Virus record (IMG/VR): IMGVR_UViG_2925939204_000001
Length of the DNA: 64,000 nucleotides
Source: a virus
Taxonomy: Duplodnaviria > Heunggongvirae > Uroviricota > Caudoviricetes
Direction: 5' to 3' (one strand)
Part shown: positions 2,805 through 48,621 of the stretch, piece after piece
How positions within the stretch are numbered: position 1 is the stretch's first letter
Layout of the letters: the number at the start of each line of letters is the position of its first letter
Notes under the pieces: model-generated
Database searches by the model: none
Told to the model about the DNA's origin: nothing
What the model saw: the letters and a program-made list of their open reading frames with translations, nothing else
Position numbers and translations under genes: made by a program

Positions 2805-3990
2805 TTTCCTGAAAAACCAGGACGGGCGCTATATCACTGACGGCCTGTCCTCTAAGGACTTCACGCGTTTATTCGAGCTTATCAGGAAAGAACAAACCCG
2901 TAAGCGCCGACAAGCTCACCGGACGCTGACGCCAGGTAGACTGAGGAACAAATCCGCCGAAGATATTCTCAAGTTAGGGAAGAAAAAAGGCGGCACGTTC
3001 TTCACGCGAGACGACCTGAAAGGTTTCGAAAAGCTACGGAGTAAAACGCGCGAAAAATATGACAGCAAGACGGCTGGCATCACATACGCCCAGCTGGTGG
3101 CATCCAGCCAGGCAATCGATATTAAGCGTGCAAATAACGCCGTGGATGACGGATCTGGTATCAAAAGAGCTACACCCGTATCTCTTCGCCACAACGTGAT
3201 TAATATCCGCGTAGAAGCATCGGATATATCCGTCCACCAGCACCATATCGTCCGGATACGCTTTGAAGAATGGGATCAGATGGTCGATAACATCGCAGAA
3301 GACGATAAATCAGCTCTGAAAATCACTAAATCACTGTGCGCCGGGCGGGTGTCTTTCGATTGTGACTGTGGTCGTCATCAATACTGGTATCGTTACATCG
3401 CTACTGCGGGTAACTTTGCCCTGGCCCCGCCAAAAGAATACGCCTATCCAAAAGTTCGCAACCCGAAGCTGCAAGGCGTCGCCTGTAAACACGTGATCCA
3501 CTCAATGACGCGGTTACAGTCCGCCAGTTGGCAAATGAGTATTGCTCGTGCGCTACAAAAGGCTGCAACGCAAATTGCATTTGGTGACGATCGCCGCCGT
3601 ACAACCAAACACTTCTCAAAAGAAGACGAGAAGGAGTTTAATCGCAATCGTAGCAGTAAAACGAACGTTGAAGCCGCCAAACGCGAATGGAGGCTCTATC
3701 AGAAGCGCCAGGCAGCTTTAAGTACAAAACTGGCAAAGGACAACGGCAAGATCGACAAACTACGTGACCAATTGACCAAGGCCAGAAAGTTGTCAGATGC
3801 ACAGAAAAAACGGGCGGCAGCAAAAGAAGCGGCCTTGCAACGTGAGAAACAGAAAAACAAGGAGCTTCAGCAACGCCTTGCCGATCAGTTCGCACTGAAG
3901 AAGCAGGCGTTCATTGATGCGCTTGTCATGGCTGGAACACCACCAGCACAAGCTGAAAAAATGTTCATGGAGTATGTAAAAAAAGCATAA
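2797..3990 (+). CDS. SWIM-type zinc-finger protein with a highly charged coiled-coil C-terminus
   Basis: CxCx(n)CxH pattern FDCDCGRHQYW...GVACKHVIH; K/R/E-rich C-terminal 120 aa. Confidence 0.5.
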   Translation: MPDFLKNQDGRYITDGLSSKDFTRLFELIRKEQTRKRRQAHRTLTPGRLRNKSAEDILKLGKKKGGTFFTRDDLKGFEKLRSKTREKYDSKTAGITYAQLVASSQAIDIKRANNAVDDGSGIKRATPVSLRHNVINIRVEASDISVHQHHIVRIRFEEWDQMVDNIAEDDKSALKITKSLCAGRVSFDCDCGRHQYWYRYIATAGNFALAPPKEYAYPKVRNPKLQGVACKHVIHSMTRLQSASWQMSIARALQKAATQIAFGDDRRRTTKHFSKEDEKEFNRNRSSKTNVEAAKREWRLYQKRQAALSTKLAKDNGKIDKLRDQLTKARKLSDAQKKRAAAKEAALQREKQKNKELQQRLADQFALKKQAFIDALVMAGTPPAQAEKMFMEYVKKA

Positions 3991-6104: not shown

Positions 6105-6896
6105 ATGGGCCGTTTTGACGAATGGTTTGCTGACGATGCAAACCTGGCAAGTAAGGAGTCAGAACATGACAGCACGCAGAGAGAAACGCCAGCGCCGATT
6201 GAAGCGAATGCAGGAGGCGCGCCGGAACATGGCAATACCGGTTCGGATTCATTCAGCATTCTGGAAGAGCAACCCGCCGCCAAAGCTGATAGCCATGATA
6301 ATTTTGCTGATAGCAACGGTGGCCTTACTCCGGATGCTGGCGAATCAGATATAGCCATACTTCCATCTTCCCTGGCTGGCAGAGAACCGACTCCACAGTT
6401 AAAAGCACGCTATAACGGGCATAAAGCCTTTAACGACCAAATCCGCGCAGACTGGATGCTGATTATTGAATCCAGCCCAGACGCGTTTCAGGCTCTCTTA
6501 TATCGACCAGATGTTGGCACATATGGGGTAGTCAGCGACGAAACAGGAGAAGAGTCATTCACTGAACTGGATAACAACCAACGCGAACTGACTTACCAGG
6601 AACCTGAAATCGTTTATGTGCTGGATAACCCTGACGGGCGTGACTCTTTCCATGCGATTGACGCAGACGGTGAGCAGGATGGCTTAACCGATGATGTTCT
6701 GATTCTGCGTATTGCAGCAAATAACGTCCCCGTCGGCTCAATTCTTGAATGGAATGAAGAGATGGTAAACGGCGTAGCGCGCCGCTGGTGGTACGTGCAC
6801 CGTATTTTTAGCTACGGCACACAGCATGTTGGTTCGCTTTACTACTGCATACCTGCCAGGAATTTTGATACGACTCAAAACGGAGTGATCGAATGA
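6105..6896 (+). CDS. phage protein with acidic low-complexity N-terminal half
   Basis: ORF track (6093); ATG at 6105 has better GAGG spacing. Confidence 0.5.
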   Translation: MGRFDEWFADDANLASKESEHDSTQRETPAPIEANAGGAPEHGNTGSDSFSILEEQPAAKADSHDNFADSNGGLTPDAGESDIAILPSSLAGREPTPQLKARYNGHKAFNDQIRADWMLIIESSPDAFQALLYRPDVGTYGVVSDETGEESFTELDNNQRELTYQEPEIVYVLDNPDGRDSFHAIDADGEQDGLTDDVLILRIAANNVPVGSILEWNEEMVNGVARRWWYVHRIFSYGTQHVGSLYYCIPARNFDTTQNGVIE

Positions 6897-7660
6897 CTTC
6901 AAATAAAACCCTCCTGGCGCGAACAGGTGAATGGCAAACCTCACGTACAGGAAAATTCCAGACCACGGGCTTTGAAAACGTGGATAACGCGTTTGCGACG
7001 CTAATCAGCAACATTTTTTCTGATATCTTACTGGTGGCCCCCGCGCCGGAAGAAAAACGCTTTGCGTCATTCCTGAATCGTCCACCAGCAGAGCGTGTCT
7101 ATGTGGCCCGTTTCGACAATGCGATCGAGTTTCTTAAAGCAGTTCGTCGCGCAAATGCCGGGCAAGGGAGAAAACCTGAAAACCAGAACATTAACCGGGA
7201 TGCTCTCCCCCTGGTCAATATCTCACGCACTATGGATATCAATTATATCAACGATGATCAGCAGATTGACCGCAAAAAAGTAGCCAGTTTTTGCGAACCG
7301 GATACCGGAATGCCTTTAGCAGAACTGGAATACACCCAGGCCATTCTGACGTATGACGTTACGTTAATGGCAACTGATAAAGCGACCATGAGTCTGATGT
7401 GTAATTCGCTGGGCGCACGGCTTCGCCTGATGACAGGTACACAATTTGAAGCAACCACTCACCTTGTTCGTGTCCCGGTCCCGCTGATTTGCTCGATACA
7501 GGATGCCAAAGAAGTCGGCTTTACGGATGTTTCAGCACCAATTGGAGAAGAGCGTATTTATGCCACACAAGCGCCGATAAGTGTGATTGCAGACGTGATC
7601 ACAGCATGGGAGTTGGACGCAAAACGTATTATTACCGAAACCTCGATATCTATGGGGTGA
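6893..7660 (+). CDS. phage structural protein (baseplate candidate)
   Basis: ORF track; overlapping-stop coupling within the 6105-9294 operon. Confidence 0.4.
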   Translation: MTSNKTLLARTGEWQTSRTGKFQTTGFENVDNAFATLISNIFSDILLVAPAPEEKRFASFLNRPPAERVYVARFDNAIEFLKAVRRANAGQGRKPENQNINRDALPLVNISRTMDINYINDDQQIDRKKVASFCEPDTGMPLAELEYTQAILTYDVTLMATDKATMSLMCNSLGARLRLMTGTQFEATTHLVRVPVPLICSIQDAKEVGFTDVSAPIGEERIYATQAPISVIADVITAWELDAKRIITETSISMG

Positions 7661-29746: not shown

Positions 29747-30568
29747 TTGAACATTCCAAAATTCCCATTGCCTTCCCGTCCTGAGACAGAAATTCAGTTC
29801 CACGCCCCTACCGTGAAGGATGCGCTGAAATATTCTGACCTGAACCCGGCAGAAGATGAGGCAACGACTACAGAGTACCTTAACTCTATGCAGGATGGTG
29901 AAATTAACGACAGTGCTAACTGGACAGTTCAGGACCGCAGAACTGCTCTTTGGTGGATATTTGTTAATTCGCGCCCCGATGCAGTAATGACCTACTCCTA
30001 TGAGTGCAGTCACTGCGGTAATACGCATCATGCAGATATTAACCTGAGCGACCTGGCCCAAACAGTAGAAATACTCACTGTACCTCCTTACGTGAAAACC
30101 AACGTACCAGTAAATGGAGTACCAACTGACTGGATACTTAAACCATTAACCGGGAAAGGCGCGGAACTCCTTGAACGAATGCGAGCGTCACTTCCTGATA
30201 TGAAAACTCCCGAATACAGTGCTGGCGTAGCACGGATGCGAATTGCTGAACTCGCTTTATGCACGGCGCTTGAAGACGATCCGGAGGACTTCACGCAGGC
30301 CGCTAACCGACGCTTTGACATCATTGAAAGCATGGCGCTTGAAACCGAATTTACCCCGCTTGTGGCTCGCATACAGCTTATGCAAAAAGACCTACGCCAC
30401 GGCCTGAAAATGTCTATTGAGAGAGGCTCAAGCCGACTGATCCTGCCTCCGCAACATTGCAAAAACGCTAAGGAGGGTGCAGATGTGACAACCACACTGT
30501 ACGTCCCCTTTCTCAATAGAGAGTTTATCCCATCAATTAGATCTGAATGGATGGCTAACCATTATTAA
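29747..30568 (+). CDS. hypothetical protein
   Basis: ORF track. Confidence 0.45.
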   Translation: MNIPKFPLPSRPETEIQFHAPTVKDALKYSDLNPAEDEATTTEYLNSMQDGEINDSANWTVQDRRTALWWIFVNSRPDAVMTYSYECSHCGNTHHADINLSDLAQTVEILTVPPYVKTNVPVNGVPTDWILKPLTGKGAELLERMRASLPDMKTPEYSAGVARMRIAELALCTALEDDPEDFTQAANRRFDIIESMALETEFTPLVARIQLMQKDLRHGLKMSIERGSSRLILPPQHCKNAKEGADVTTTLYVPFLNREFIPSIRSEWMANHY

Positions 30569-41643: not shown

Positions 41644-41835
41644 TCTTAATACCCCAGCGCGATAAAACAACAATCTTTGGTGCCCTCTCCGGATGGCGAC
41701 CAGTTCTGAATACTGATATGCGTTCTGCTGGCAATACGCACATTCATCGCGGCATTGTAGCCAGATGTTCCACGGTTTCCGGTCGCAAATAAGCCTGCAT
41801 AGGGAAAAGCAAATGGTAAGCCGCTCTAACTGCTA

Positions 41836-42012
41836 TACGACCAAGGCTTCATCTCTGGAAAACATACGCAGAACCTTTTTTAACCCTTGGCGTTTAGCCT
41901 TTTTGCCACTCGCTTTGCCCTCAAAAATTAGCTCACATCCTGCGCTTTCAAGGGGGCGTTGCAAAGCGGTGTTTTGGTCATTTGTTGATATGCGAATGTA
42001 TCTAATAAGCAT
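41836..42012 (-). pseudogene. N-terminal fragment of a Cin/Gin/Hin-type serine DNA invertase, stopped by TAG where Trp is expected and degenerate thereafter
   Basis: MLIRYIRISTNDQNTALQRPLESAGCELIFEGKASGKKAKRQGLKKVLRMFSRDEALVV* aligns with invertase N-termini including the catalytic Ser; next codons QLERL match the expected W-KLDRL. Confidence 0.6.
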
Positions 42013-45430: not shown

Positions 45431-45804
45431 TGACTATCTCTGTTTTAGACCGTCTGAAATTGGGTAAAGAGCTATCAGATTTAATGCAGGCGCAGAAAAC
45501 CGCGCCAGTATTACAACGCGTCGCAATTGGTAAGCAGATTGTTGATCTGATGCTTAAGCTGGGGCTGGGTGCTGCCGCTCAACCGATATCGGAACCGCAA
45601 CCGCACCCACAGTCTGATCCTGTTGCAGATGAAGTTCCTAAGATAGTGACTGACTTCCTGGGCGGTGTGTTCACAAAGTCCACACAAATGGAATTTATTG
45701 ATGCGCTGCGTGGGATCTCAAACTATGTTGGCGAGTTCCTTACGTTGGAGCAGGCTAAAGAGCAGACCATCGGTTGGGTTAAAGCCAACGGATATGCCGG
45801 ATAA
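45430..45804 (+). CDS. hypothetical protein (DdrA-like by position)
   Basis: ORF track; TAATG coupling with the upstream gene. Confidence 0.35.
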   Translation: MTISVLDRLKLGKELSDLMQAQKTAPVLQRVAIGKQIVDLMLKLGLGAAAQPISEPQPHPQSDPVADEVPKIVTDFLGGVFTKSTQMEFIDALRGISNYVGEFLTLEQAKEQTIGWVKANGYAG

Positions 45805-45834
45805 TCCAAAGGGGCTGAAATACCCCTTTCACTT

Positions 45835-47225
45835 ATCCAGTGCGCCATAAAACCCCGTCCTTCAGGGCGGGGATATAAGGCGCGGTTTTCCACCTAAATT
45901 TTTTTGTTTAAAATAGCGGGATGAAACGACTACAGGCATTTAAATTCCGGTTAAGACCAGATGGTCAACAGGAGCGAGAAATGAGGCGCTTCGCGGGAGC
46001 TTGTCGTTTCGTTTTCAATCGTGCTCTGGCGCTTCAGAATGAGAATCATGAAGCCGGGAACAAATATATTCCTTACACAAAAATGGCTTCCTGGCTGATT
46101 GAGTGGAAAAATGCCTCTGAAACGCAATGGCTTAAAGATTCTCCCTCACAGCCATTGCAGCAATCACTGAAAGACCTTGAGCGGGCCTACAAAAATTTCT
46201 TCCAGAAGCGTGCGGCTTTCCCCCGATTCAAAAAGCGGGGACAGAATGATGCATTCCGCTACCCGCAGGGCGTTAAGCTCGATCAGGAAAACAGCCGTAT
46301 TTTTCTGCCGAAACTGGGCTGGATGCGCTACCGGAACAGCCGTCAGGTCACGGGTGTTGTGAAAAATGTCACTGTCAGCCAGTCCTGCGGTAAGTGGTAC
46401 ATCAGTATTCAGACAGAAAGTGAAGTATCAACTCCGGTTCACCCTTCAGCATCAATGGTCGGGCTGGATGCTGGCGTGGCTAAACTCGCCACGCTGTCAG
46501 ATGGCACAGTCTTTGAGCCTGTAAACAGTTTTCAGAAAAACCAGAAGAAGCTGGCGAGACTTCAGCGACAGTTAAGCCGCAAGGTCAAATTCAGCAACAA
46601 CTGGCAGAAGCAGAAACGCAAAATACAGCGACTGCATTCCTGTATCGCAAATATCCGCAGGGACTACCTTCACAAAGTCACAACGACCGTCAGCAAAAAC
46701 CACGCAATGATAGTCATTGAGGATTTGAAGGTCAGCAACATGTCAAAGTCAGCAGCGGGTACGGTCAGCCAGCCGGGGCGCAATGTCCGGGCAAAATCAG
46801 GTTTAAACCGTTCGATACTGGATCAGGGCTGGTATGAAATGCGCCGCCAGCTTGAGTACAAGCAGCTCTGGCGTGGCGGTCAGGTGCTTGCTGTTCCGCC
46901 AGCGTACACAAGCCAGCGTTGCGCGTACTGTGGTCATACAGCGAAAGAAAATCGCCTGTCACAAAGTAAATTCGAGTGCCGGGCATGTGGATATACAGCG
47001 AACGCCGATATAAACGGCGCTCGTAACATTTTAGCGGCGGGACACGCCGTTCTTGCCTGTGGAGGGATGGTGCAGTCAGGCCGCCCGTTGAAGCAGGAAC
47101 CCACCGAAATGATTCAGGCAACAGCCTGAGCGTAGCAGGAATCCATGTTCTTGAGGGCGTGGAGGATGTCAACTGTTCTCACATAAATCACACACTTTTT
47201 ACACTTCCAGCTTTCTCTATAGGGG
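45835..47225 (+). mobile_element. IS200/IS605-family element carrying only tnpB, with subterminal hairpins; boundaries approximate
   Basis: TnpB ORF flanked by imperfect hairpins (AACCCCGTCC-ttca-GGGCGGGG at 45851-45874) and no TnpA gene. Confidence 0.55.
45921..47129 (+). CDS. tnpB: TnpB (OrfB) RNA-guided endonuclease, apparently intact
   Basis: RuvC-like residues in GLDAGV, IVIEDLK and [10 protein letters not shown]; C-terminal zinc finger CAYCGH...CRACG. Confidence 0.85.
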
Positions 47226-47235
47226 GGAGTGTATT

Positions 47236-48621
47236 TTGAACAAGTCAGTTACTTCTGCGCTTTCCGAGGCCGCAGATATTAACAGCGTCATTGCTCTGGT
47301 TTCTTCATTAGAGAGGAAAGAAACACGCCTTGGGCGAAGTAGCTACGTAGTCACCAGCAAAGGTGCAGAGGTAAAGACGGCTTTTAAGGTCGTTGATGCC
47401 AGCAGTCTGATCATTTCGAACAACCTTGACGGTACGATTAACCTGGCCTTCCCGGAAGAACTCCAACCACGAGATCGTACCCGGCTATCCAGCAAACTCC
47501 AGGTTAACCGTATTGCCTCCAATTTACGCCCGGCACAATTAACGGATTCCGGTATGAGCAGCCACGGAGCGCCGATAGTTGGTCCGGACAACGTTGTAGA
47601 ATCCGGCAACGGAAGGAGTATGGGTATCTGGCGTGCCTATGAGCAAGGACAGGCGGATGAGTATCGCCAGTACCTGATCGACCATGCGAAAGAGTTTGGT
47701 CTGAATCCTGACGAAATTTCGCAAATGTCTATGCCCGTACTGGTGCGAGAAAGACTCACAGATGTAGACCGCGCTCAATTTGCCCGCGATTCAAACATTA
47801 GCGATCTGCAAGAGATGGCAGCAAGTGAAAAAGCGTATGCGGATGCGCAATTTCTCACTGAGAGCGTCATGGCGCTATTTAATCCTTCAGATGATGGAAA
47901 TCTGCTGGCGCGGTCCAATGATGCGTTTATTCGTGCGTTTTTGCGCGAAATTGGCGATACAGCGACGGCAGGCTTGCTTACTGCCGATGGGCGTCCCACG
48001 AAACAGCTTATCGATCGCATCCAGAATGCAATTTTTGCCAAAGCGTACAAGGATGAAAGGCTTGTTCGGCTGGTGTCGGAAGAGCCAGATCCGGAAATGC
48101 GTAATATCCTGACCGCATTAAATACGGCAGCCAGCGATTTTGCGCAAATGCAGTCGCTGTCTGGCGACGCTCACCATGACGCAGTAACAGGCTTAGTGGA
48201 CGGTATAGAGCAGGTTAATGGCCTGGATACACAGGCGATAGCAGCACTCCAGGAAGCAATTAATCTTGTACGTGAAGCCAAAGACAACGGTCAGGCCGTT
48301 GAAGAAGTGATCGCCCAAAGGGGGTTATTCGGCGACAGTACACCGGAAGCTGAGGCATTGGCGCTATTCATCGTAGCAAATAATCGCAGTGCGAAGCGTA
48401 TGGGGGCCGCATTCAAAAAAATGGCGCAAAAAATCAACGACGAGCTGACTCATAAACAACAGGCATTGGGCGATATGTTCGGCGGTGGCGATGTTGATCT
48501 GCGTCGTATTTTGTCTGCTGTATCTGATGAAATTGAGGGTGAATTTGGCGAAGGGAAAGGTCTGAACTTTGCTATGCTTGAAAATTCTACAGATCTAAAT
48601 AATTGCAGTATGGAAAACTAA
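47236..48621 (+). CDS. hypothetical phage protein (DdrB-like by position)
   Basis: TTG start after GGGGGGAG; ORF track. Confidence 0.4.
   Translation: MNKSVTSALSEAADINSVIALVSSLERKETRLGRSSYVVTSKGAEVKTAFKVVDASSLIISNNLDGTINLAFPEELQPRDRTRLSSKLQVNRIASNLRPAQLTDSGMSSHGAPIVGPDNVVESGNGRSMGIWRAYEQGQADEYRQYLIDHAKEFGLNPDEISQMSMPVLVRERLTDVDRAQFARDSNISDLQEMAASEKAYADAQFLTESVMALFNPSDDGNLLARSNDAFIRAFLREIGDTATAGLLTADGRPTKQLIDRIQNAIFAKAYKDERLVRLVSEEPDPEMRNILTALNTAASDFAQMQSLSGDAHHDAVTGLVDGIEQVNGLDTQAIAALQEAINLVREAKDNGQAVEEVIAQRGLFGDSTPEAEALALFIVANNRSAKRMGAAFKKMAQKINDELTHKQQALGDMFGGGDVDLRRILSAVSDEIEGEFGEGKGLNFAMLENSTDLNNCSMEN

Follow-up and report, generated by a model that had tools for sequence, protein, structure and literature searches.

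The locus analysed here has several described relatives. IS609 of Escherichia coli is about 1750 bp long and combines insQ/tnpB with a divergent tnpA, and elements of the IS1341 group, reported in 312 E. coli genomes, consist of a single tnpB between IS605-type ends, TTAT on the left and TCAA on the right being the commonest motifs of that survey (PMC9956272). In IS608 of Helicobacter pylori the target TTAC is recognised by a left guide tetranucleotide (GL, AAAG; PMC3201880); the right guide tetranucleotide (GR) is GAAT, the right cleavage site (CR) TCAA lies 10 nt 3' of the hairpin, and insertion creates no duplication. ISDra2 of Deinococcus radiodurans (PDB 8bf8, 8h1j) has the TAM TTGAT and an ωRNA, with a 116-nt scaffold, that covers the tnpB 3' end and stops at the element's right end; this RNA folds into several stems, places a tetraloop hairpin roughly 20 nt ahead of the guide, and pairs the residues directly preceding the guide with a distal 5' segment (PMC10097598). 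The ISGst elements of Geobacillus stearothermophilus for the most part carry tnpB without tnpA and are moved in trans; their TnpA and TnpB use the same adjacent motif, and the guide is directed at the scarless donor joint (Meers et al., PMC10055086).

The window considered here is the whole analysed stretch of 64,000 nucleotides, a D6-like (P1-related) E. coli phage-plasmid. Between its ddrA-like and ddrB-like genes lies a tnpB-bearing insertion (Table 1) that is very probably a non-autonomous IS609 element, carrying an apparently intact tnpB and an ωRNA scaffold, that was inserted in trans. The element belongs to a known, catalogued E. coli IS lineage and is nothing new, and its TnpB is already annotated in identical public plasmids; our literature searches returned no paper on this insertion or on an IS609 ωRNA. 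No second copy of the element is present within the 64-kb window.

Table 1. Coordinates of the element, its predicted functional parts and its neighbours in the 64-kb window
Feature	Positions	Strand	Basis
ddrA-like gene, 124 aa	45430-45804	+	ORF list; D6 orf26 at homologous position, annotated 'similar to P1 gene ddrA'
Native hairpin with T-rich tail after ddrA, AAAGGGG-CTGAAATA-CCCCTTT	45808-45829	+	Sequence; also in empty-site relatives
TTAT target, left cleavage site and predicted TAM; flank DNA, outside the element	45833-45836	+	Copy comparison, empty sites
Whole element, tnpA-less IS609-type (IS1341-style) IS, 1336 bp	45837-47172	+	Junctions compared with empty sites
Left guide tetranucleotide (GL) AAAA, directly 5' of left hairpin	45849-45852	+	Position as IS608 GL (PMC3201880, PMC5934647)
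Left subterminal hairpin (IPL), CCCCGTCC-TTCA-GGGCGGGG	45853-45872	+	Sequence
Promoter-like site TTTCCA, 16-nt spacer, TAAAAT	45887-45914	+	Consensus scan only, 9/12 matches
tnpB, 402 aa, apparently intact predicted RNA-guided endonuclease gene	45921-47129	+	ORF, Pfam, catalytic residues
Predicted ωRNA scaffold	47023-47172	+	Covariation, covariance model R1
Predicted scaffold helices	47034-47050; 47056-47097 enclosing 47065-47085; 47109-47133; 47142-47163		
Right guide tetranucleotide (GR) GAAT, 5' of right hairpin	47139-47142	+	Sequence, position as IS608 GR (PMC5934647)
Right subterminal hairpin (IPR), also final predicted ωRNA scaffold stem	47143-47162	+	Covariation
Right cleavage site TCAA, final four bases of the element	47169-47172	+	10 nt past hairpin foot; motif and spacing as IS608 (PMC3201880)
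Predicted guide segment CTGTTCTCACATAAAT, flank DNA	47173-47188	+	Follows from right-end boundary
ddrB-like gene, 461 aa, ParB-type domain	47236-48621	+	Pfam ddrB-ParB 2.5e-42

The insertion is evident from a comparison with plasmids that lack it. Empty sites in related plasmids read ...TTTCACTTAT/CTGTTCTCACAT..., with the slash at the insertion point, and in L009, L010 and L011 TTTCACTTAT/CTGTTCTCACATAAATC with no duplication; because related plasmids supply such sites, both ends of the element are fixed to the base, the empty alleles being TTAT/CTGTTCTC and the filled one TTAT/CCAGTG...GTCAA/CTGTTCTC. The initial annotation had proposed a tnpB-only IS200/IS605 element with definable boundaries at 45810-47235, between the 124-aa and 461-aa genes of a putative anti-restriction operon, and had named relatives with the same sequence but no IS boundaries as evidence against it. 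Empty sites in D6 and in some 100 D6-like plasmids define those boundaries, and the ORF list, Pfam and the D6 annotation confirm the position within the operon; the insertion thus stands, in an interval slightly narrower than proposed. Upstream of the ddrA/ddrB pair lie hdf-like and darA genes, and the element is co-oriented with the operon. A left boundary placed after CACTT was rejected: it gave a 2-bp mismatch with the D6 empty site, which a six-copy comparison resolved because TTAT is flank DNA and D6 carries a TTCT variant.

At every independent copy that we examined, TTAT or TTAC stands 5' of the left end, and insertion 3' of a specific tetranucleotide, without target-site duplication or terminal inverted repeats, is what characterises the IS200/IS605 family. 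The target lies within the tail of the post-ddrA hairpin, and other copies of the element likewise sit directly after hairpins with T-rich tails. The flank match with IncI2 copies, which extends from 45824, was considered as a sign of shared site ancestry and set aside, since it reflects merely a similar hairpin tail (...CCCTTTC-TTAT).

The affiliation with IS609 is supported by nucleotide identity of 95-96% to chromosomal IS609 copies, both at the left end and from tnpB through the right end (5043 records), and by the PGAP label 'IS609 family transposase' for the adjacent tnpA in H59; IS609-type sequence is found in 5015 of 5426 complete E. coli genomes. The element shares with IS609 the TTAT target, the hairpins and the GGAGGATGTCAA terminus. 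It differs in having a 25-nt AT-rich junction where IS609 has a tnpA segment of about 430 bp, and in starting tnpB with ATG instead of GTG; because the junction replaces the tnpA segment, the element measures 1336 bp and is non-autonomous. Its single tnpB and its cleavage motifs, TTAT on the left and TCAA on the right, are those of the IS1341 group. An autonomous IS609 encodes a Y1/HUH TnpA, and the lack of TnpA recorded in the initial annotation holds across the 64-kb window, in which none is detectable by tblastn with IS609 TnpA (best E-value 2.1). From these comparisons we assign the element to the IS609 lineage of the IS200/IS605 family as a non-autonomous, tnpA-less member.

A recent local deletion of tnpA can be discarded as the origin of this form: the 25-nt junction is absent from full IS609 and common to other tnpA-less copies, so the tnpA-less form is an established sublineage. 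Its architecture, 1335-1336 bp long, recurs on plasmids and phage-plasmids at five distinct sites (this one and four others). The promoter-like site is part of the junction that only tnpA-less copies have, and 6 nt separate its end from the tnpB ATG. As a separate observation, the tnpA beside many chromosomal IS609 copies is annotated as a pseudogene, and that of K-12 has an internal stop.

Both ends carry the subterminal hairpins, guide tetranucleotides and fixed-distance cleavage sites typical of IS200/IS605 elements. As in IS608, there is target-GL recognition, GR is GAAT, TCAA lies 10 nt 3' of the hairpin and no duplication accompanies insertion; unlike IS608, the target is TTAT and GL is AAAA, the target is separated from the left hairpin by 16 nt (19 nt reported for IS608), and this copy lacks tnpA. 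GL covaries with the fourth base of the target among copies according to the IS608 rule (AAAA with TTAT 21 times, AAAG with TTAC nine times, one exception; PMC3201880). On the right, compensatory changes occur at seven of the nine hairpin pairs across relatives, and GGAGGATGTCAA forms the terminus in 46 of 47 relatives, with flank divergence starting right after it; the left hairpin is weakly matched by the right-end hairpin part of covariance model R1 (13.2 bits), described below. Since the window has no tnpA, any movement must be in trans, and since both sets of TnpA recognition signals are present, excision and mobilisation should remain possible. This particular copy may still be mobile. 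It would resemble the ISGst elements in trans mobilisation, in a motif shared by TnpA and TnpB and in a guide against the donor joint, a function shown by experiment there and predicted from sequence here. Given that no TnpA is encoded in the window, this copy may also never move again.

The tnpB reading frame is full length and free of stops, and its product is identical to K-12 InsQ at 386 of 402 positions. The domains HTH_OrfB_IS605 (PF12323, 2.4e-16), OrfB_IS605 (PF01385, 1.3e-34) and Cas12f1-like_TNB (PF07282, 9.3e-24) all score above their curated cut-offs and make up a complete HTH/WED-REC, RuvC and zinc-ribbon architecture. In the alignment with ISDra2 TnpB (8bf8; E = 6.5e-54, residues 3-376), the RuvC triad D183/E267/D363 falls on D191/E278/D361 and a 15-residue insertion follows E267; both CxxC pairs are kept (C334/C337/C353/C356). 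The initial description of an apparently intact TnpB, which mutated catalytic residues would have contradicted, agrees with the conserved triad and cysteine pairs, and the protein is predicted to be an active nuclease. Our literature search found no biochemical characterisation of this TnpB lineage; an IS609 TnpB was one of nine candidates purified in one study (PMC12781874). A match of TnpB residues 351-398 at 29999-30136 (tblastn E = 0.003) falls within a 273-aa ORF that is unrelated and has a Cys/His motif; it was taken as chance.

A conserved structured RNA of about 150 nt overlaps the final 107 nt of tnpB plus the right end. Protein homologues, nearly all from E. coli and with few exceptions at 95-97% identity to the query, were useless for covariation, and the diversity for the RNA alignment was therefore taken from a scan of genome contigs. 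In alignment A1, comprising 47 relatives, the structure has 40 pairs with 94.4% of cells paired and compensatory change at 24 of the 40; at 47039/47045, for example, 26 sequences have A-U and 20 have G-C. None of 500 shuffles reached the observed level, and slid controls gave 41-52%. The structure was replicated in A2, a gap-free alignment of non-Escherichia relatives (97.6% paired), and covariance model R1, built without Escherichia sequences, matches this copy over its full length at 47023-47172 (163.2 bits, E = 5e-46), every base pair of the model being standard here. Positions 47026-47030 can pair at long range with 47165-47169, next to the guide, in 98.7-100% of cells, with one-sided changes only (e.g. 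U-G to C-G); this candidate pairing may form a pseudoknot or triplex. In every relative, conservation stops at 47172, and from the next base on the flanks differ at every locus. A single-sequence MFE fold gave a middle region unlike the comparative structure, and the covariation-based structure was preferred.

The initial annotation had expected an ωRNA at 47000-47225 and suggested a covariance-model search for it; the match of R1, ending at 47172, supports the location over the tnpB 3' end and right end and narrows the extent. The layout resembles that of the ISDra2 ωRNA in its several stems and in the tetraloop hairpin about 20 nt ahead of the guide, and the guide-proximal residues may likewise pair with a distal 5' segment; it differs in a predicted scaffold of about 150 nt rather than 116 nt, and in TTAT rather than TTGAT as the predicted TAM. 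Two Rfam families that overlap tnpB 3' ends, RAGATH-18 and HgcC, match below their gathering scores (28.1 vs 44.9 bits at 47056-47099 and 19.1 vs 50 at 47062-47185, respectively), and the scaffold is for this reason assigned to neither.

Part of this structure has a second possible role. The right hairpin, GAAT and TCAA correspond exactly to what TnpA recognises in IS608-type elements, and they cover the best-supported helix, and because the same hairpin is the TnpA-binding DNA hairpin, covariation of the final hairpin alone is no proof of a role in RNA. That the entire segment serves the transposase as a single-stranded DNA signal, rather than being a guide-RNA scaffold, is nonetheless very improbable: IS608 TnpA complexes need just the right-end 45-56 nt (RE45/RE56 substrates, PMC3201880), while compensatory changes also support four more helices located 40-140 nt upstream, within the tnpB coding region, in a layout like that of the ISDra2 ωRNA (PMC10097598). 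The conserved RNA is most likely the ωRNA scaffold, and would be expressed and processed as such.

The guide, with a length of 16 nt assumed from ISDra2 (PMC10097598), would begin at 47173, in keeping with the initial proposal that it is specified by the adjacent flank, and flanks differ at every insertion. Its sole perfect match in the window is its own flank, and TTAT plus the guide reconstitutes the empty allele of related plasmids. The site is empty in 102 of 114 D6-like plasmids, and about 10 of 112 relatives carry the element; the unoccupied ddrA-ddrB spacer perfectly matches TTAT plus the guide in about 67 of the 112 (~60%; PLSDB), and D6 and some others have TTCT at the TAM position. 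All carriers have the element at one common site and with near-identical sequence, which fits vertical inheritance.

Such a distribution would also be expected of an inert relic, a dead passenger that is inherited with the plasmid and has lost production or activity of its TnpB and RNA, and the lack of tnpA in the window and the weak promoter match (9/12) point the same way. We consider this quite unlikely, given a full-length, stop-free frame with its catalytic and zinc residues kept and such high identity to InsQ, the uniformly standard pairs of the RNA model, the intact transposition signals at both ends, and the occurrence of the tnpA-less form at a minimum of five sites. The position inside an operon, co-oriented with it, together with a similar element at the ddrA/ddrB junction of P1-like phages, could instead suggest a domesticated, nuclease-dead TldR-like regulator recruited to control the dar operon. 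This is scarcely credible for a protein with an intact RuvC D-E-D triad between full transposon ends: roughly 90% of D6-like plasmids do without the element, the copy in P1-like phages is in the opposite orientation and at a different site, and the guide matches nothing in the window other than its own flank.

As the initial annotation suggested, the insertion may alter expression of the downstream gene. It lengthens the transcribed interval between ddrA and ddrB by 1.3 kb of co-oriented DNA, and processing of the ωRNA would sever a read-through transcript directly 5' of ddrB, so that the element might be kept mainly for altered ddrB expression, through polarity, a new promoter or an RNA-processing site. 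We regard this explanation as distinctly improbable. The 63 bp immediately 5' of the ddrB start are unaltered, terminator-like sites show no significant excess (4 vs 2.4 expected), and carriers are few among the relatives. The ddrB-like gene itself is not truncated: the comparison of downstream gene lengths suggested at the outset gives 461 aa with the IS and also in the empty-site plasmids L008 and L009, and D6 has an annotated 454-aa ORF at the ddrB position in the same TTG-start context.

The favoured explanation, a non-autonomous IS609 element inserted in trans, has mechanistic precedents (PMC10055086, PMC10097598). The element would have entered one D6-like sublineage as single-stranded DNA, 3' of TTAT in the tail of the post-ddrA hairpin, through the Y1 transposase of a host-resident IS609 copy. 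Transcripts running past the right end would then acquire the flank CTGTTCTCACATAAAT as a guide, and the TnpB-ωRNA complex would cut copies of the locus that lack the element, recognising TTAT together with the guide match.

The significance of these results is mostly that of a clean negative, the insertion being a catalogued IS found in most E. coli genomes. They yield as useful by-products the base-exact ends and the TTAT TAM of the tnpA-less IS609 form, and a covariation-supported ωRNA structure with a covariance model for an enterobacterial TnpB lineage that scores below threshold in Rfam. More tentatively, and with only a modest chance of being right, the TnpB-ωRNA pair on a phage-plasmid may do more than retain the element, mediating homing or exclusion where relatives compete. 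If so, an IS-bearing plasmid could cut a co-resident D6-like phage or plasmid without the IS, the cut rival would be eliminated or converted to the IS-bearing allele, and the TTCT alleles would be escape variants. Because the predicted guide matches the empty allele common among D6-like phage-plasmids, allele conversion or exclusion driven by TnpB between natural phage-plasmids is open to a simple test.

The window is part of a D6-like, P1-related E. coli phage-plasmid. Positions 45700-47350 are 100% identical to nine ~92-kb non-mobilizable E. coli plasmids (e.g. NZ_CP032875.1), and the gene order around the element is as in phage D6 (lydB-like, hdf-like, darA, ddrA-like, ddrB-like, portal). 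This order, together with Pfam matches in a 658-aa protein (DarA_N and DarA_C), a 211-aa protein (DarA_N) and the 461-aa protein (ddrB-ParB domain), bears out the Dar-like operon setting proposed in the initial annotation. In NZ_CP032875.1 and its twins (H14-H16) two places match the 1651-nt query, one of them in the window and the other outside these 64 kb. Elsewhere, a 59-aa ORF at 41833-42012 (-), MLIRYIRISTNDQNTALQ..., ended by a stop, adjoins the tail-fibre region; we take it to resemble the N-terminus of a serine invertase of the Cin/Hin type, and it may be what is left of a decayed one.

The element is absent from phage D6. A synthetic empty-site query matched 114 plasmids, 102 of which run contiguous over the junction. 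The three empty sites that we read, in the D6-like plasmids L009, L010 and L011, have ...CCCCTTTCACTTAT/CTGTTCTCACATAAATC..., and the filled site in the window has ...CACTTAT/CCAGTGCGCC...GGAGGATGTCAA/CTGTTCTCACATAAATC...; this comparison gives base-exact junctions and hence an element of 1336 bp, with no target duplication at its ends relative to these sites. A solo element with definable boundaries, as first described, is thus upheld, and its extent is corrected from 45810-47235 to 45837-47172. In D6 (~3125-3135), L008 and some other D6-like plasmids the insertion point has TTCT for TTAT, which explains an apparent 2-bp mismatch of D6 in the window junction alignment; the TTCT allele should resist insertion as well as cleavage by TnpB.

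The 402-aa product has all three TnpB Pfam domains, each far over cut-off, and its residues 3-376 align with ISDra2 TnpB (PDB 8bf8/8h1j; E ~6.5e-54). The RuvC triad D183/E267/D363 corresponds in this alignment to D191/E278/D361 of ISDra2 TnpB, and the protein has two CxxC pairs, C334/C337 and C353/C356, in keeping with the earlier reading of an intact protein. That reading also held that tnpA is missing: in a tblastn search of the 64-kb window the strongest match of IS609 TnpA had an E-value of 2.1, so that the window holds no TnpA-like coding sequence, and no second copy of the element was found there. Public records already label identical copies 'RNA-guided endonuclease TnpB family protein'. 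A 647-bp segment of filamentous Escherichia phage If1 (records H7/H8, 6409-7055; annotated 'ORF348') is 96% identical to the middle of tnpB. Several Logan assembly contigs encoding this TnpB (P0050, P0065, P0117) are exactly 1336 bp, the element length, as expected if the repeat collapses into its own unitig.

The element sequence is matched in 5015 of 5426 complete E. coli genomes, at a median of two places per genome with any. Chromosomal copies match in two pieces around ~430 bp that hold a divergent tnpA of 142 codons, which has the HUH and Tyr motifs and is named 'IS609 family transposase' in some annotations; this pattern identifies the window copy, at the level of sequence, as a tnpA-less IS609 derivative. 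In place of the tnpA segment is a 25-nt AT-rich junction not found in full IS609, and tnpB starts with ATG rather than the GTG of full IS609. The junction and the 1335-1336 bp length recur at four other locations, namely a P1-like plasmid (between lysozyme and head-processing genes), an IncI2 plasmid, another D6-like plasmid (between baseplate and maturation-control genes) and phage RCS47, which points to an established tnpA-less sublineage mobilised in trans. The form corresponds to the IS1341-group elements of a six-species survey, which found them in 312 E. coli genomes (PMC9956272). A 56-aa ORF at 45723-45893 (-) is no gene; it derives from the IS609 tnpA frame, which in full copies is stop-free through the left end (VENRAVYPRPEGRGF...) and of which nothing but this tail is left here.

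Coordinates of the element, its signals and the sister insertion
Feature	Position	Strand	Remarks
Target TTAT	45833-45836	+	directly 5' of element
Element	45837-47172	+	1336 bp, junctions versus empty sites
Promoter-like site	45887-45914		just before tnpB; consensus scan
tnpB ORF	45921-47129	+	402 aa
Putative long-range pairing	47026-47030 with 47165-47169	+	changes one-sided only
Helix	47034-47039 with 47045-47050	+
Helix	47056-47060 with 47093-47097	+	encloses 47065-47066 with 47084-47085 and 47068-47071 with 47080-47083
Helix	47109-47111 with 47131-47133	+	encloses 47114-47119 with 47124-47129
Right guide tetranucleotide GAAT	47139-47142	+	5' of right hairpin
Helix	47142-47150 with 47155-47163	+
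Right hairpin	47143-47162	+
Right cleavage site TCAA	47169-47172	+	element's last bases, 10 nt past hairpin foot
Predicted guide CTGTTCTCACATAAAT	starts 47173	+	16-nt length assumed from ISDra2
RCS47 copy	L002 (phage RCS47) 2970-4303		antisense to operon; empty sites at ~position 300 in L100 (JL22) and L101 (P1)

TTAT precedes every independent copy, with TTAC in some relatives. Left-end junctions were compared between L004-L007, L013-L086, L102, L103 and window 45833-45852. Across 34 distinct junctions, base four of the target motif changes in step with base four of the tetranucleotide that directly precedes the left hairpin: TTAT goes with AAAA in 21 and TTAC with AAAG in 9, one exception pairs TTAC with AAAA, and three TTAT junctions have one A deleted and an ambiguous parse. 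This follows the IS608 rule, under which the cleavage and target site is recognised through base-pairing to the left guide sequence (PMC3201880), and natural sequence variation thus supports that rule in the enterobacterial lineage. The right guide, the right cleavage site and the 10-nt distance of the latter from the hairpin foot are exactly those of IS608; with the left guide/target match, they indicate that all cis signals for TnpA-mediated excision and insertion are intact in the window copy.

For the ωRNA we collected 80 loci encoding TnpB relatives (30-96% protein identity) from one-genome-per-species contigs; in 46 further sequences similarity ends at GGAGGATGTCAA, and the 20 nt that follow are different at nearly all loci. 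RNAalifold on the 175 nt upstream of the right end in 47 sequences gave several helices with compensatory changes. In a fixed structure of 40 pairs, 94.4% of cells hold standard pairs and 24 pairs have both-sided changes, several covarying pairs lying at synonymous coding positions (at 47039/47045, for instance, 26 sequences have A-U and 20 have G-C); none of 500 shuffles reached any of five measures, and sliding the 3' partners by 1-3 columns lowered pairing to 41-52%. In a gap-free alignment of 28 non-Escherichia relatives, pairing extends to 97.6% of cells and double changes occur in 12 pairs, and a covariance model built from it matches 47023-47172 (+) at full length (163.2 bits, E ~5e-46, zero non-standard pairs), its only other match in the window being a weak one on the similar left hairpin. 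Rfam RAGATH-18 and HgcC matched the scaffold region below thresholds only. The ωRNA expected at the tnpB 3' end and right end is therefore supported, with the span of the predicted scaffold revised from ~47000-47225 to 47023-47172. In ISDra2 the scaffold comprises four stems, with a UUUA tetraloop at -20 to -17, and -5..-3 form a pseudoknot with -103..-105 (PMC10097598). The layout predicted here is similar: it has several stems, a tetraloop hairpin ~20 nt ahead of the guide and a putative pairing between the bases that directly precede the guide and a distal 5' segment, the last of these changing on one side only. The last scaffold hairpin doubles as a TnpA-binding DNA hairpin. Since the upstream helices fall beyond the 45-56 nt of right end required by IS608 TnpA, they are best explained by a role as RNA.

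The element is co-oriented with the operon and lies 3' of the native hairpin after ddrA; the TTG start of ddrB keeps its 63 bp of upstream sequence unchanged, and ddrB has its usual 461 aa, unaltered relative to IS-less homologues. A consensus scan gave no significant excess of terminators. The P1-like phages RCS47, SJ46 and vB_EcoM-813R1 carry a 1335-bp tnpA-less copy (93% identity), annotated insQ in the RCS47 record, also at the ddrA/ddrB junction. It runs antisense to the operon and uses a TTAT other than the window's, the complement of the last base of ddrA plus the TAA stop; with its right end, GTCAC, an Ala codon and a TGA stop are re-formed, which leaves DdrA unchanged in P1-like carriers. 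The P1-like insertion is an independent event of a sister lineage at the matching gene junction.

Within the window the predicted guide matches perfectly only at its own flank, and there the element displaces the target-adjacent motif; TTAT plus the guide reconstitutes the empty allele. With a 60-nt empty-junction query against 112 D6-like plasmids, identity was at least 99% in 67 records and lower in 45 (the D6-type TTCT allele, e.g. L008, gives 94.9%); the junction was spanned in 102 records, and the 10 matching in the right half only are, judged by this pattern, insertion carriers. For such a guide/empty-allele configuration, cleavage of the scarless donor joint by TnpB-ωRNA is known, and it drives re-installation through recombination (PMC10055086); by that mechanism, TnpB-ωRNA here would cut the empty allele and recombination would re-install the element. 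TTCT in D6-like relatives may be an escape allele or have arisen by chance. The observation is genuine, and the initial annotation is supported with corrected coordinates; the element, its kind and its type of location are all already known, and the one mildly new angle is that the guide may play a part when IS-bearing and IS-less D6-like phage-plasmids compete.
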